This document shows positions 2,748-11,669 of a stretch of DNA of 37,749 nucleotides, piece by piece; the stretch's first letter is position 1; every line of letters begins with the position of its first letter. Both the position numbers and the translations under genes were made by a program. The DNA comes from Nanobdellota archaeon. GTDB lineage: Archaea > Nanobdellota > Nanobdellia > Woesearchaeales > JAHIVG01. The stretch is taken from contig JBDRLS010000115.1 of the NCBI GenBank assembly GCA_043812875.1, positions 1 to 37,749 of the forward strand, given 5' to 3'. The notes beneath the pieces were generated by a model, which searched no databases, was not told the DNA's origin, and saw only the letters and a program-made list of their open reading frames with translations.

Positions 2748-3368
2748 TCACCAGCTCAAGGTCACTTCAGCCCCTTTTGAAAGCGCTAGCTTATGTCTGA
2801 CATGTTCCGGAGCGATGAATTCAATGATCTCTTTGGCATGAGAGGTTCTCTCCGGAAAGATCAATGCTCCCCTGATATCCTCGAGCCATGCTGCTTTGCC
2901 ATATACCGGACCGAATGTCCTCCCATTTTTTGTAAATCCTTTAACTTCCTTCATGACCTGCCCGGCGAGGAATGCCCGGAGCTTGTCTGGATTAACCTTG
3001 ATGTTTAATGTCCCCAGATAAGGGATGAAGGAAAACGCTTCCGAGAGGGATTCCTTGTAGTGCCCCATATAATATTTCCCTTCCCCTAAGCCGGTTACGA
3101 TCCTGCCTTTGAGCGTGCTGTTTTTTAAAAATAGGGATGCAAGCTTCTCGAATTCCTCCCTGAGCCCAGCCATGCCTTTCTCAGTGAGTTTAGCGGTGAA
3201 GCCTGCCGGGCTGGTTGTGAGAGTGATCAAGCCGGCGCTCTTGAGATCACCTAGTATCCTCGAGGCGGATTGCTGGGACATATTCAGTTTCTTGGCGAGC
3301 AAGCCGGTAGTGGACTCATATTCCTTAGAAAGCCCCTTGCTGGCAAGCTCCTGGAGCATCGGTTGCAT
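2748..3368 (-). CDS. ribK: Winged-HTH domain fused to CTP-dependent riboflavin kinase (RbkR-like bifunctional regulator/kinase)
   Basis: The C-terminal half carries archaeal RibK motifs (GLGEGKYY, YLGTLNIKV, PERTSH). The N-terminal ~70 aa look like a wHTH (LAKKLNMSQQSASRILGDLKSAGLI). A TATA box sits 30 nt before the ATG. Confidence 0.85.
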   Translation of the reverse strand: MQPMLQELASKGLSKEYESTTGLLAKKLNMSQQSASRILGDLKSAGLITLTTSPAGFTAKLTEKGMAGLREEFEKLASLFLKNSTLKGRIVTGLGEGKYYMGHYKESLSEAFSFIPYLGTLNIKVNPDKLRAFLAGQVMKEVKGFTKNGRTFGPVYGKAAWLEDIRGALIFPERTSHAKEIIEFIAPEHVRHKLALSKGAEVTLSW

Positions 3369-3403: not shown

Positions 3404-3805
3404 CTATAACCCAAGAGCCTCATCTATCTTCTTGGCGATAGCTCGCATATGTTCCAATGTCAGAGATATATCCCCCTCGATTTCATCGATCAAGGCTTCA
3501 AGGTTCTCCACCCTGATCAGGTAATATCCTTTCTCATGGATGACCAATCCTGAGGAGATCAGCTTGTTGATGTGATGCACCACTGTCCCCCTGCTGAGCC
3601 CTGTCCGTAATGCAAGAGTGTCAGAAGTGAGGGGAAGCTTATGCCTTGTCGACTTCAACAACTCGACGAATATCCGGAACAGGCTCTTGTCCTTGTCTCT
3701 CTCTGAGAACAAGCCGAGGCTCTGGCAGAGCCATTGCAGGTCATCATTGAGACTTGTTTTTACAGGGTGCCTCGTCCTGATGATGGTGATCCTGGTTGTC
3801 GGCAT
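3404..3805 (-). CDS. Small winged-helix transcription regulator; candidate autoregulated chaperone-operon regulator
   Basis: HTH segment LTSDTLALRTGLSRGTVVHHINKLISSGLV. TATA-like CATTAAAAAG (3827-3836, minus strand) lies about 29 nt before the ATG. The palindrome 3806-3822 abuts the start codon. Confidence 0.75.
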   Translation of the reverse strand: MPTTRITIIRTRHPVKTSLNDDLQWLCQSLGLFSERDKDKSLFRIFVELLKSTRHKLPLTSDTLALRTGLSRGTVVHHINKLISSGLVIHEKGYYLIRVENLEALIDEIEGDISLTLEHMRAIAKKIDEALGL

Positions 3806-3822
3806 GTTGATGTTAGGTCAAC
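3806..3822. promoter_or_regulatory. Operator-like palindrome GTTGAT-GTTAG-GTCAAC between the TATA box and the start codon of the wHTH gene
   Basis: 6-bp inverted arms with a 5-bp spacer. The only other copy of this architecture in the window is at 7308-7324, in the grpE leader. Confidence 0.55.
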
Positions 3823-3949
3823 ACAGCTTTTTAATGGTTTCCATCCTCCAGGTCTCATTTCTATTCTCAAGTAGGGAAAAGTTTAAATATCAAAACGTAT
3901 ATCAGTATACAAAAAAGGTAAACAATTAGAAAATGAGGAGGAATGCCCA

Positions 3950-7215: not shown

Positions 7216-7265
7216 CCTCATAATCAGGATATCATTTGAATTTCTCTGTTTTTCTTCGTTATTCC

Positions 7266-7280
7266 AAAAGATTTAAATAC
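7266..7280 (+). promoter_or_regulatory. BRE/TATA promoter of the grpE operon (AAAAGATTTAAATAC)
   Basis: The first T of TTTAAATA is at 7272. The window's usual spacing predicts a transcription start near 7303, giving a leader of about 46 nt that contains the palindrome. Confidence 0.5.
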
Positions 7281-7307: not shown

Positions 7308-7324
7308 GTTGACTTAAGGTCAAC
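7308..7324. promoter_or_regulatory. Operator-like palindrome GTTGAC-TTAAG-GTCAAC in the grpE leader
   Basis: Perfect 6-bp inverted arms with a 5-bp spacer, just downstream of the predicted transcription start. Same architecture as 3806-3822. Confidence 0.55.
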
Positions 7325-7348: not shown

Positions 7349-7864
7349 ATGAAAAACAAACACACACCCCAAAAAGCGCTTGAAGAAGCGAAAAAAGAGC
7401 TAAGCCTGCTTGAATCTGCAAAAGACGAGATGAAAGATACCTTACAACGCGTCCAGGCAGAGTTCGAGAACTACAAGAAACGTATTGAAAAGGAATCAGC
7501 CCAGCGATGCCTTTGCGTAAAGGCGTCATTCCTGAAGGAACTCCTCCCGATTGTCGACAGTTTCGAGAAAGCATTGGAGCATCCGACAGAAGGAGAGGAT
7601 TTCATCAAAGGAATGGTTCTTATCCAAGACCAGCTTTTATCCATGCTCAAGAAAGAGGGTATCCATCCGATAGATACAGGAGGCAAGCATTTTGATCCCC
7701 ACCTCCACGAGGCCATGACGCACGGCGAAGGGGAGGACGGCATCATCCTGGAAGAACTGCAGAAGGGATACACGATGCATGATATAATCATCCGTCACAG
7801 CAAGGTCAAGGTAGGCAAACATGACACTGATAAAAAAGACCACCAAGACGAAAACCATCATTGA
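7349..7864 (+). CDS. grpE: Nucleotide exchange factor GrpE
   Basis: Coiled-coil N-terminal half (RVQAEFENYKKR) and a C-terminal FDPHLHEAM motif. First gene of the dnaK locus. Confidence 0.9.
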   Translation: MKNKHTPQKALEEAKKELSLLESAKDEMKDTLQRVQAEFENYKKRIEKESAQRCLCVKASFLKELLPIVDSFEKALEHPTEGEDFIKGMVLIQDQLLSMLKKEGIHPIDTGGKHFDPHLHEAMTHGEGEDGIILEELQKGYTMHDIIIRHSKVKVGKHDTDKKDHQDENHH

Positions 7865-8351
7865 GCTCGGCAAAGGCTGCGGAGCACTATGCCATTGGAG
7901 CGGGCACTGCTGCAAGCACACTTCAGCTATCCTCGTCGGAAACGAAAAGAAAGAGCTCGCCGAGGACATGGGCCTGTCTGAAAAGGAATTCGAGAAGCGA
8001 TACCTTGAAGACACGACGCGCTTCAACACAAAACTCAAGCAGTTCAAGCAGAGAAGAGAGAAAGGCAGGCCCCATGGTCCCTGCATCATGCTTACGGAGA
8101 CAAATCGGTGCAGGATCCATGATATCAAGCCATTGTATTGCAGGACAGGGAACTGTCGAAATGAGCATGGCGAGGCCATTGCCGTATGGTTTGCGCTCAA
8201 CCATTTTGTCAACACGAATGATGCAGAGTCCATGAGGCAATGGGCAGCTTACCTTAGGACACACCCGACCATCCAGGGAGGGAAGCTGGAAGAGCTCATT
8301 CCAGACAAGAAGCATCTCTCAAGGATCCTCACCCATGAACTGTTATATTGA
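7821..8351 (+). CDS. YkgJ-family Cys-cluster (putative Zn/Fe-chelating) protein
   Basis: Cys cluster CGALCHWSGHCC followed by GPCIMLTETNRCRIHDIKPLYCRTGNC, matching the CxxCxxCC-family pattern. Overlaps the grpE 3' end by 44 nt. Confidence 0.7.
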   Translation: MTLIKKTTKTKTIIELGKGCGALCHWSGHCCKHTSAILVGNEKKELAEDMGLSEKEFEKRYLEDTTRFNTKLKQFKQRREKGRPHGPCIMLTETNRCRIHDIKPLYCRTGNCRNEHGEAIAVWFALNHFVNTNDAESMRQWAAYLRTHPTIQGGKLEELIPDKKHLSRILTHELLY

Positions 8352-8356
8352 TCAAG

Positions 8357-8674
8357 ATGAAAACGCACACACCTCCAAGAGGGAAGCAAAGGATGTTCCT
8401 CAAAGCTGAGGCCATCCTGCGCTACCTCACCCAGGATGATGAACACCTTGACACATTGATCATGTGCAAGGGCTCTGAGGTGGAACTCATCACATCGGAC
8501 GCGTCGCTCTACAGCGCGATGGCCTCTGTTGAAGATCATAGCAAGATCAAGTTCAATAAGCTGACCAAGTTCCTCGAAGTGGTGGATATCCATTCATCGA
8601 AGGAACGCGGTCAAGAGAAGAAAGTCCTCACGCACGAGGACGTCGAAAATTTAAGGAAAATCGCACTAAGGTGA
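8357..8674 (+). CDS. Hypothetical protein between the YkgJ-like gene and dnaK
   Basis: The ORF fills the gap exactly, with its stop overlapping the extended dnaK ORF. No recognisable motif. The start is ambiguous (TTG 8348, ATG 8357 or ATG 8393). Confidence 0.5.
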
Positions 8675-8679
8675 TACAC

Positions 8680-10563
8680 ATGGGAAAAATAATCGGCATT
8701 GATTTAGGGACAAGCAATTCAGCAGCAGCATTCTTAGAGGCCGGAAGGCCGAAAATAATTCCTTCCGCAGAAGGCGCATCCCAGTACGGCAAGGCCTTCC
8801 CCAGCTTCGTCGCATTCACCAAGGACGGTGATCTCCTCGTCGGAGAGCCTGCAAAGAGGCAGATGGTCTCTAATCCAGAACGCACCGTTCTCGCTGCAAA
8901 ACGCAAGATGGGGACGACACACAAATACAAGATCAACGGCAAGGAGTATACCCCTCAGCAGATCTCGGCATTCATCCTGCAGAAGATCAAGAAGGATGCA
9001 GAAGAATTCCTCGGCGAGAAGGTCGAGAAAGCGGTCATCACTGTCCCTGCCTATTTTGATGACAACCAGCGGCAGGCAACAAAGGATGCAGGCGCCATTG
9101 CAGGATTGGAGGTCGTGAGGATCGTCAATGAGCCGACGGCCGCGTCATTGGCCTATGGCATCGACAAGAAAAAGGAAAGCAAGATCCTTGTCTTCGACTT
9201 CGGCGGCGGGACATTGGACGTCACCATAATGGAATTCGGGGACGGCGTCTTTGAAGTCAAGTCGACCTCTGGAGACACACAGCTCGGCGGGACCGACATG
9301 GATGAAAAGATCATGGGGTTCTTGGTCAAGGAATTCAAGAAGCAGGAAGGCATTGACATAAGCAAGGACAGCATGGCTACCCAGCGCCTCAGGGAAGCGG
9401 CAGAAAAGGCCAAGATAGAGCTTTCCACCACACTGGAGACAGACATCAATCTGCCGTTCATCAGCGCCACGGACGCCGGTCCGAAGCATCTGTCCATAAA
9501 GCTGCGGAGAGCCCAGCTCGAGGAATTGGTCATGCCCCTCATCGAGAAATGCAGGAACCCTGTTGAGCAGGCATTGAAGGATGCGAAGCTCACCAAGGAT
9601 GATATAGACAAGGTCATCATGGTCGGCGGTCCGACGAGGATGCCTATTGTCCAGAAGTTTGTCGAAGACATGGTCGGGAAGAAGCTAGAGCGCGGCGTCG
9701 ATCCTATGGAATGCGTCGCCATGGGCGCTGCGATCCAAGCGGGTGTCCTCGCCGGCGATGTGAAAGATGTCCTTCTCTTGGACGTGACTCCTCTTTCATT
9801 AGGCATCGAAACCCTTGGAGGCGTCTTCACCAAGCTCATCGAGCGAAACACGACAATCCCGACGAAGAAGAGCCAGATCTTCTCGACAGCAGCCGATAAT
9901 CAGCCAGCGGTGACCATCAATGTGCTCCAAGGGGAACGTTCGATGGCTTCAGACAATAAGAATCTTGGACGGTTTGATCTGGTGGGCATCCCTCCTTCAC
10001 CAAGGGGAATCCCCCAGATTGAGGTCACCTTTGACATCGATGCCAATGGCATAGTCCATGTCCACGCAAAGGACCTGGGGACGGGGAAAGAGCAATCGAT
10101 CCAGATCACTGCAACCCAGAAACTCAATGATGAAGAGATTGAGAAGATGAAAAAGGATGCTGAAGCCCATGCCTCCGACGACAGGAAGAAGAAAGAGGAA
10201 GCTGAAACCATAAACAATGCGGAAACCTTGGTATACACGACCGAAAAGCTCTTCAAGGACATGGGAGATAAAATGCCAAAAGAACAGGTCGAGCCTGTCC
10301 AGAAAGAGATTGATGAGCTGAAAGGACTCCTTAAGCCAGAGAAGAAGGACTCCGCGGCGATCAGGGCAAAACTTGATGCGATCAACGAGAAGGTGCAGAA
10401 GATAAGCACCGAGCTCTACCAAAAGGCCGCACAAGAGCAGGCAGCCAAACAGGCTGAGGAAGCTAAGAAAGCCGGGAAGAAGGACGGCAAGAAAGAGAAG
10501 GTTGTCGACGCTGATTATAAAGAGACGGATGATAAGGCCGATGACAAGGAAACCAAGAAATGA
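8680..10563 (+). CDS. dnaK: Hsp70 chaperone DnaK
   Basis: Hsp70 motifs [19 protein letters not shown] and [14 protein letters not shown] lies 4 nt before ATG 8680. Confidence 0.95.
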
Positions 10564-11669
10564 CCAAGGACTACTACGAGACCCTGGGCCTGCAGAAAGG
10601 TGCGTCCAAGGAAGAGATAAAGAAGGCGTATAAGCGGCTGGCCAAAAGGCTCCATCCCGACGTCAATAAGGATAGCGATGCCGCTGAGAAGTTCAAGGAG
10701 ATCAATGAGGCTGCGGCTGTCCTGGGTGATGACCAGAAGCGTGAGCAGTATGACCGCTTCGGCACAGCCGGCGCAGGAGGGGGCTTCTCAGGATTCGACT
10801 TCTCAGATTTCATGTCCGGCGATGGCGGCTTTGACTTCGACAACATCTTTGATACTTTTTTCGGCGGAGGGGGGGGAAGGAAACGCCGCACCTCGCATAG
10901 AGGCTCAGACCTTCGCTATGACATCGAGCTCTCGCTTGAAGAGGTTGCCAAGGGCATAAAAAAACGCCTCTCTCTCACTAAGATGGACATATGCAATGAT
11001 TGTCATGGCTCAGGGGCGGCCTCTGACAAGGATATCTCATCATGCAATGAATGCAATGGTCAAGGCATCAAGCAGGAAGGCAGGAGAACACCTTTCGGCG
11101 TCTTCATGACGCGTACGACATGCAATAAATGTCAAGGCACCGGCAGGATGATCACCAAGCTTTGCTCCTCCTGTAGGGGGAATGGCAAGCTTGAGAAATC
11201 AAAGCGTCTCGATGTCGATATTCCAGCTGGCGTCGACGATGGAACACGCCTGAGGGTGGCGGGCGAGGGAGAAGCAGGAAGCAGAGGCGCTCCTTCAGGG
11301 GACCTCTATGTGGTCGTCCATGTCAAAGACCATGAACTCTTTGAGCGGCAAGAGGATAACCTCTTCTTGGAATGCGAGATTACGTTTCCTCAAGCAGCGC
11401 TGGGCGCTGAGATCGATGTCCCGACCATTGACGGCAATGCGAAACTGAATATTCCTGCCGGCACGCAATCTCATACGACGTTCCGCATGCGCGGCAAGGG
11501 ATTGCCGCATCTCAATGGCTATGGCTCAGGAGACCAGATGGTCCGCGTCCTGGTGACCACTCCGAAAAAGCTGAATGCAAAAGAGAAAGAGATCCTTAAT
11601 AAATACGCGAAGCTGACCGGCGACACTGTCAAGCCGAGCAAAGGCTTCTTCTCGAAATTGCGCGGATGA
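10560..11669 (+). CDS. dnaJ: Co-chaperone DnaJ
   Basis: J domain with HPD, a G/F-rich linker, and four CxxCxGxG repeats ([32 protein letters not shown]). ATGA overlap with the dnaK stop. Confidence 0.95.

Follow-up and report, generated by a model that had tools for sequence, protein, structure and literature searches.

Small winged-helix proteins with a C-terminal helix regulate heat-shock genes in two hyperthermophilic Euryarchaeota, Pyrococcus furiosus (Phr) and Archaeoglobus fulgidus (HSR1). To our knowledge, Pyrococcus has no Hsp70 system. A 2022 review names Phr and HSR1 as the only heat-shock regulators that have been described in archaea; their operators read TTTA..TGGTAA..AAAA and CTAAC-N5-GTTAG, respectively, and Phr, from a repressor site over the transcription start, blocks the recruitment of RNA polymerase after TBP and TFB have bound (PMC9133787). 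For the DPANN archaea, a survey of protein families reports KJE (DnaK/DnaJ/GrpE) and GroEL systems without a regulatory explanation (PMC8204110). In the searchable literature we found no prior description, for Woesearchaeota or DPANN, of the regulator or the site discussed below. We know of no work on how DPANN archaea, which so far cannot be cultured by themselves, regulate their genes.

Here we analysed a stretch of 37,749 nt from a Woesearchaeales (DPANN) archaeon, the whole of which is referred to as the window. We propose that a 133-aa winged helix-turn-helix (wHTH) protein encoded in it is a dedicated transcriptional repressor of the Hsp70 chaperone operon, a reading to which we assign a probability of about 0.78. 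Several features recall Phr and HSR1: the protein is likewise a small winged helix with a C-terminal helix, a palindrome overlaps the transcription start of chaperone genes (hsp20 and AAA+ ATPase genes in their case), a further copy lies at the regulator's own promoter, where the two known proteins exert autoregulation, and the arms-N5-arms layout is that of the HSR1 operator. The resemblance is a functional one only. Unlike in Phr and HSR1, the operator is GTTGAY-N5-RTCAAC, the HSR1 motif CTAAC-N5-GTTAG being absent from the window; the proposed regulation is directed mainly at grpE-dnaK-dnaJ, an operon of bacterial type, and in some relatives at groESL as well; the hosts, DPANN archaea, are mesophiles and not hyperthermophiles; and no relationship of sequence or fold to either protein was detectable beyond the generic wHTH.

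The locus is also reminiscent of HrcA/CIRCE in its targets (grpE-dnaK-dnaJ and groES-groEL), in the location of the regulator gene beside grpE, in the inverted-repeat operator at the promoter or start site and in the negative control that we propose. HrcA, however, has about 340 aa as opposed to 133, and the promoters here are of the archaeal BRE/TATA type. As for a rival regulator, the HrcA domain (PF01628) was absent from the protein and from a six-frame search of the genome, a search in which control genomes gave matches, and CIRCE (TTAGCACTC-N9-GAGTGCTAA) was not matched anywhere in the window, even when 3 mismatches were allowed. HspR/HAIR and CtsR, which repress chaperone or protease genes, likewise have operators over the promoters of chaperone genes, and we take the HAIR half-site TTGAG...CTCAA and the CtsR repeat GGTCAAA to resemble the GTTGA(C/G) arm. 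HspR, however, belongs to the MerR type and its HAIR arms are spaced differently, and CtsR binds a direct repeat, unlike the inverted repeat found here. Neither the MerR nor the CtsR Pfam model matched the 133-aa protein, and the sole CtsR (PF05848) match in the focal genome, at 21.7 bits and below the cut-off, lies elsewhere and contains two stops. Membership in the Phr/HSR1, HrcA or CtsR families was rejected, the profile, Foldseek, domain and operator comparisons all being negative.

Candidate regulator gene, its protein and the chaperone operon

On the minus strand, the start of the regulator gene reads ...ccATTAAAAAgctgt GTTGACCTAACATCAAC ATG or, over a wider stretch, ...ggaaaccATTAAAAAgctgt-GTTGACCTAACATCAAC-ATGCCG..., with the ATG (3805-3803) directly abutting the palindrome (Table 1). 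A preliminary description of this DNA had placed a 17-bp palindrome immediately before the ATG of the 133-aa wHTH ORF, and this placement is confirmed, whereas the TATA-like element that it named is better read as ATTAAAAA, with 5 nt between it and the operator and 22 nt between it and the ATG. The distance of 22 nt is consistent with a leaderless regulator transcript. The palindrome fills the gap between the TATA-like box and the ATG and would thus extend from about -17 to -1 of such a leaderless start. Directly downstream of the regulator gene lies a gene for a wHTH-riboflavin kinase fusion (RibK, PF01982 plus a MarR-like HTH; 2748-3368, minus strand), and this adjacency is preserved in the related genome G001 (L058).

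Table 1. Features of the proposed regulatory system in the window
Feature	Position	Strand	Basis
wHTH gene, 133 aa (P0001), candidate chaperone-operon repressor	3404..3805	-	ORF and translation
Proposed operator copy at the regulator's own promoter, GTTGACCTAACATCAAC	3806..3822	-	sequence; 23.0 bits
TATA-like element of the regulator gene, ATTAAAAA	3828..3835	-	sequence read; assignment inferred from spacing
BRE-like CCAAAAGA and TATA box TTTAAATA of the grpE operon	7264..7279	+	sequence; TATA = 7272-7279
Proposed strong operator of the grpE operon, GTTGACTTAAGGTCAAC	7308..7324	+	sequence; 30.1 bits
Proposed target operon grpE-CxxCxxCC-orf108-dnaK-dnaJ	7349..11669	+	Pfam; same gene order in relatives
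grpE	7349-7864	+	Pfam
CxxCxxCC/YkgJ-like gene (PF03692)	7821-8351	+	Pfam
Unknown 108-aa ORF	8348-8674	+	between CxxCxxCC gene and dnaK
dnaK	8671-10563	+	Pfam
dnaJ	10560-11669	+	Pfam

A second palindrome had been reported just past the predicted start of grpE transcription, and we find it there: GTTGACTTAAGGTCAAC is a perfect palindromic copy, separated by 28 nt from the TATA box upstream and by 24 nt from the grpE ATG (7349) downstream, and would occupy about +5 to +23 of the predicted grpE transcript, subject to where exactly transcription starts. The genes of the operon are tightly packed, with overlapping or abutting neighbours. In most relatives, throughout the order, a CxxCxxCC gene and an ORF of ~108 aa (7821-8674 in the window) are embedded between grpE and dnaK, and their overlap with the neighbouring genes suggests that they are functional parts of the Hsp70 unit.

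That the window contains only two GTTGAC-N5-RTCAAC elements also proved correct and can be extended to the entire 1.495-Mb, 93%-complete assembly, where the same two places are the only ones. By chance, 0.01 such elements would be expected per window, and none of 100 shuffled versions reached the observed count. When the genome was scanned with a position-weight matrix (PWM) built from the sites of relatives, the two sites scored 30.1 and 23.0 bits and the next best match 10.9 bits. The presence of the two promoter palindromes is far beyond chance. Additional regulon members in the focal genome were rejected in view of this low next score and of the thermosome promoter, at which no GTTGA palindrome was found and which therefore points to a minimal regulon here; no hsp20 or groEL gene was found in the focal assembly. 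Judging from these matches, the focal regulon appears to consist of the grpE operon and the regulator gene only.

From the N- to the C-terminus, the 133-aa protein has a conserved R-ITII-R stretch, a wHTH whose recognition helix is SRGTVVHHINKL, a beta wing and finally a long helix. An AlphaFold2 model (pLDDT 82) leaves the N-terminus disordered and shows a helix, then a canonical wHTH with its wing, and at the C-terminus a helix of 30 residues; the helices at 37-54, 61-68 and 72-84, of which the third is the recognition helix, and the strands at 88-91 and 94-97 together form a wHTH fold. In profile searches the C-terminal helix matched designed coiled coils and is therefore likely to be a dimerisation element. 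An alignment of 48 homologues has 27 invariant columns, among them the N-terminal I-T-I, SLGLF..RD and RGT..HH of the recognition helix, and it contains no invariant Cys/His cluster for metal or redox sensing apart from this HH.

Among the Pfam models, HTH_Crp_2 scored above its cut-off (28.8 bits, cut-off 27), while HTH_20, HTH_11 and MarR_2 remained below theirs, as did HTH_5 (ArsR; 19.3 vs 22); the NCBIfam models Lrs14 (22 vs a cut-off of 90) and Sta1 (22.1 vs 80) were both sub-threshold, with E of about 1e-4. Among solved structures, Sulfolobus tokodaii ST1889 (2d1h; E = 1.5e-6) comes nearest, with the similarity confined to the wHTH. A profile of the 48 members, run against the whole set of PDB sequences with a limit of E <= 10, returned no Phr, HrcA, HspR or CtsR, and the top 50 Foldseek matches were generic MarR/ArsR/ST1889 wHTH proteins only, with no Phr among them and none at E <= 1e-3. 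The best matches in sequence and structure are to the Lrs14/ST1889/Sso10a and ArsR/SmtB types, which share the wHTH and a C-terminal coiled-coil-like helix, and by these comparisons the protein would be classed as a generic ArsR/Lrs14-like winged helix. It nevertheless differs from these types: the matches to the specific families (HTH_5, Lrs14, Sta1) cover the wHTH only and lie below the curated cut-offs, the conserved N-terminal 35 residues and the linkage to chaperone operons are specific to the present family, and the metal-binding residues of ArsR/SmtB are not conserved in it. The family accounts for 286 clusters (50% identity, E <= 1e-10) in a set of 1.84 billion representatives; at least 581 species-level genomes encode a member, and the focal genome encodes a single one.

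Sites in relatives, promoter geometry and proposed mechanism

The preliminary description had raised the possibility that the motif is similarly frequent at random genomic positions, and this was not the case: a genome-wide pattern search of 41 related genomes yielded 45 sites, compared with 3 for a reversed control. From gene maps drawn over ±3.5 kb around each site, we could place 29 of the 45 before grpE or hsp20-grpE, 3 on the wHTH gene's own promoter, 1 beside the wHTH gene at a contig end, 5 before other chaperone genes (groES-groEL; hsp20-groES-groEL; thermosome; two Cdc48-type AAA+ ATPases) and 1 before an unknown gene, the other 6 being apparently chance occurrences. Promoters of chaperone genes (grpE/hsp20, groES-groEL, thermosome, Cdc48) and of the regulator gene thus account for 38 of the 45 sites, and the thermosome, small Hsp and AAA+ promoters that had been named as likely further locations of the motif do have it in relatives (thermosome, hsp20, Cdc48). 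In the usual map, the wHTH gene and (hsp20)-grpE-CxxCxxCC-orf108-dnaK-dnaJ diverge from the site. The wHTH protein was found in 35 of the 41 genomes and, once the loci had been oriented, GTTGAN-TTWAR-NTCAAC was seen upstream of the wHTH orthologue in about two thirds of the relatives' loci. Seen from the chaperone side, the site precedes grpE or hsp20 in 30 of the 35 grpE-bearing relatives, with G002 counted via a looser search.

A second set of 80 loci, which partly overlaps the 41 genomes, was assembled with back-translated peptide patterns searched against 185,579 species genomes. Within 400 nt upstream of the wHTH gene, 59 of the 80 loci have an exact site and another 12 a site with one mismatch, and the divergent neighbour of the wHTH gene is grpE or hsp20 in 67. 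The site before grpE is kept in other orders of the same class.

The geometry of the promoters was analysed on 81 unique chaperone-side sites from relatives. At all 81, BRE/TATA in the form ccgaaag-aTTTAWATA precedes the palindrome, with the purine-rich BRE (ccgaaag) before the TATA box and the TTTAWATA box 15-28 nt upstream of the palindrome (mode 23 nt, 41/81; second mode 26 nt, 17/81). Given that an archaeal TATA box is centred near -26/-27, this fixed spacing implies that the palindrome covers about +2 to +18. The original suggestion that the palindrome lies over the initiation region is thereby borne out at chaperone promoters, where it is found downstream of the TATA box and at the transcription start in 81 of 81 cases.

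In 27 of the 81 loci, a weaker, degenerate site (O1; <=3 mismatches) occurs exactly 20 bp upstream of the strong palindrome (O2), compared with 0-3 matches of this type at any other offset between -40 and +40. O1 lies 3 nt after the TATA box and extends from about -20 to -4 (e.g. L042, 3481/3501, and L060), a position that matches that of the single operator at the regulator's own promoter in the focal window. At the focal grpE promoter, with its 28-nt spacing, no clear copy of a second site was found 20 bp upstream. The dyads of O1 and O2 are two helical turns apart, suggesting that two dimers bind cooperatively to the same face of the DNA.

At the level of sequence, the predicted repression of both the regulator gene and the Hsp70 operon through a shared palindrome is supported; from the same material we infer the binding of the palindrome by the wHTH protein, the sign of the regulation and the nature of the signal. 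In the mechanism that we envisage, the wHTH protein, probably as a dimer, would bind the 17-bp palindrome GTTGAY-TTAAR-RTCAAC. At the grpE promoter, the bound protein would cover the transcription start and the first ~20 transcribed bases, so that TBP and TFB would stay on the promoter and, in a Phr-like manner, the recruitment or escape of RNA polymerase would be blocked; the dimer on the strong O2 would be helped by a second dimer on the weak O1 in occluding the promoter. At the regulator's own promoter, occupation of the site between the TATA box and the leaderless ATG would result in negative autoregulation. Under proteotoxic or heat stress the repressor would leave the DNA, allowing grpE-CxxCxxCC-orf108-dnaK-dnaJ to be transcribed.

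The position of the chaperone-promoter sites, always downstream of the TATA box and over the start as with archaeal repressors such as Phr (PMC9133787), makes it improbable that the wHTH protein binds the palindrome as an activator or dual regulator, even though the back-to-back layout puts the site upstream of the regulator's BRE/TATA, where archaeal activators bind. We judge it no more probable that the protein responds to something other than heat or misfolded protein, for instance redox state or metal: the Cys-rich CxxCxxCC protein that is embedded in the operon throughout the order would fit such a signal, but hsp20, grpE-dnaK-dnaJ, groESL, thermosome and Cdc48 as targets represent the classical heat-shock set, and the HH of the recognition helix is all that the family offers by way of an invariant Cys or His cluster for metal or redox sensing.

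Co-occurrence and joint loss of protein and site

Co-occurrence of wHTH orthologues with the motif, which had been put forward as a test in relatives, was found, and the regulator and grpE also co-occur. Among the 41 relatives, 34 encode both the wHTH protein and GrpE, 5 neither, 1 the wHTH protein only and 1 GrpE only; in G003, the genome with the wHTH protein only, the contig stops a little past the site, beside the wHTH gene. Across the phylum, the wHTH family is present in 160 of 201 sampled genomes, with both proteins in 156, the wHTH protein only in 4, GrpE only in 13 and neither in 28 (Fisher's exact p = 3e-20, a statistic that ignores shared ancestry). Four genomes of a single family, f83 (L176-L179; G076, G089, G123, G167), are among those with GrpE only. 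Their hsp20-grpE promoter is without a GTTGA site; in its place, immediately behind the TATA box, stands a perfect palindrome of another sequence (GTATGTAC|GTACATAC; in L179, ATACGTATGTACATACGTAT). The site and the wHTH protein were thus lost together in f83, which supports the assignment of the wHTH protein to the site.

This joint loss also argues against the view that another, unlinked factor binds the palindrome, or that the palindrome is a special core-promoter element, with the wHTH gene as a bystander. So do the persistence of the linkage between site and gene across the whole class, the copy of the site at the wHTH gene's own promoter in several lineages in which the gene lies apart from grpE, and the combination of a dyad-symmetric 17-mer with a phased second copy, which is typical of dimeric wHTH operators and not of BRE/TATA-type elements. 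We therefore consider this view very unlikely, although haloarchaea do regulate a heat-shock promoter via BRE/TATA and alternative TFBs (PMC2396416) and one 95%-complete genome, G168 (L181), has a perfect site (GTTGATTTTAAATCAAC) 47 nt before its GrpE Pfam match and no detectable wHTH homologue. The G168 case is either an assembly gap or a real exception.

We give hardly any credence to the palindrome working as RNA, i.e. as a hairpin in the 5' leader (a thermometer or stability element) to which the wHTH gene is unrelated, and rejected this reading: the site is transcribed at chaperone promoters (about +2 to +18) and the focal leader folds into a 7-bp hairpin, but the fold is no better than that of shuffles (z = -1.08), has no Rfam match and leaves the ribosome-binding site and start codon untouched, the arms are invariant without co-variation and positions 6/12 are unpairable in 22 of 81 mRNA-sense sites, the spacing is fixed to the TATA box and not to the ATG, the site at the regulator promoter is upstream of the leaderless start and so outside the RNA, and a second site spaced at exactly 20 bp is as expected for protein bound along a single face of the double helix.

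The reading of the wHTH protein as a dedicated repressor can be taken further, to a master switch of proteostasis for an entire archaeal class that senses stress via the DnaK it controls, in an HspR/sigma-32-like loop that would have been invented independently. We regard this extension as doubtful. It would operate by chaperone titration, free DnaK keeping the repressor active and unfolded proteins drawing DnaK away. Speculatively, the invariant N-terminus R-ITII-R-x-RK, which is predicted to be disordered, may resemble a DnaK client site, as DnaK prefers substrates with a hydrophobic core flanked by basic residues. If this were true, bacterial-derived DnaK/DnaJ/GrpE and GroES/GroEL as well as the archaeal thermosome, Cdc48 and Hsp20 would be under one archaeal-type operator.

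Chaperone repressors that bind a palindrome are well known as a kind; the wHTH family, the operator and the lineage are new. The repressor reading would also show, by example, how chaperone genes acquired horizontally from bacteria came under the promoter logic of archaea. On a practical level, the protein and its DNA site form a pair open to synthesis and in vitro testing with no need for a culture of the organism, and the regulon is very small and clean for study.

Derived layout and variant sites

In the focal window the regulator gene is located ~3.5 kb from grpE and has an operator of its own. Judged by the arrangement in relatives, this layout is derived, the common one being back to back with one shared operator region. 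In the focal genome and in G001 and G002, which belong to its family, genes for Cys-rich CARDB surface proteins are situated between the regulator and grpE, joined in the focal genome by a PIN gene. A site between the TATA box and ATG of a wHTH gene that lies away from grpE is present in the focal genome, G009, L083, L087, L090, L121 and L135, and G014 has such an own-promoter site too, though its wHTH gene still adjoins hsp20-grpE. At the regulator's promoter in the closest relatives, G001 and G002, no site was found, suggesting that autoregulation is lineage-specific. In the back-to-back layout the site precedes the TATA box of the regulator gene by about 45-80 nt, a position from which it would not repress the regulator gene, and since this layout is the common one, self-repression would not be universal. 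On this evidence, direct self-repression seems to be recurrent and not universal, with control of the Hsp70 operon as the probable constant feature.

Some lineages have variant half-sites, GTTTA/TAAAC replacing GTTGA/TCAAC in L174 (G190), L175 (G202), L122 and L148 (e.g. GTTTACTTTAAGTAAAC), which gives a half-site consensus of GTTKA. We found no convincing co-variation of the recognition helix, which is nearly invariant, with GTTGA half-sites as opposed to the GTTTA half-sites of family f81. At a single locus on an ENA metagenome contig (L151), the gene of a distant wHTH member (P0265; profile E = 6.5e-19) and an hsp20 gene are again transcribed divergently; the locus has no GTTGA site, and an AT-rich 6-N5-6 palindrome, AATGAATTTAGTTCATT, lies between two TATA boxes.

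In public records the wHTH homologues bear the names Woesearchaeota or Nanoarchaeota. Contigs encoding the protein are often labelled 'uncultured Methanosarcinales archaeon' (TPA; L073, L080, L082 and many others), probably a labelling artefact.

The Hsp20 proteins of L176-L179, the f83 loci with the different palindrome, have an additional N-terminal stretch of ~45 aa ('KVWRSGNSWVITIPSEI') that resembles the AbrB/MazE swapped-hairpin DNA-binding domain, and the Pfam model MazE_antitoxin matched in one of two with E = 0.008. The f83 Hsp20 may thus be a chaperone fused to its own repressor domain, which would have displaced the wHTH protein in this family.
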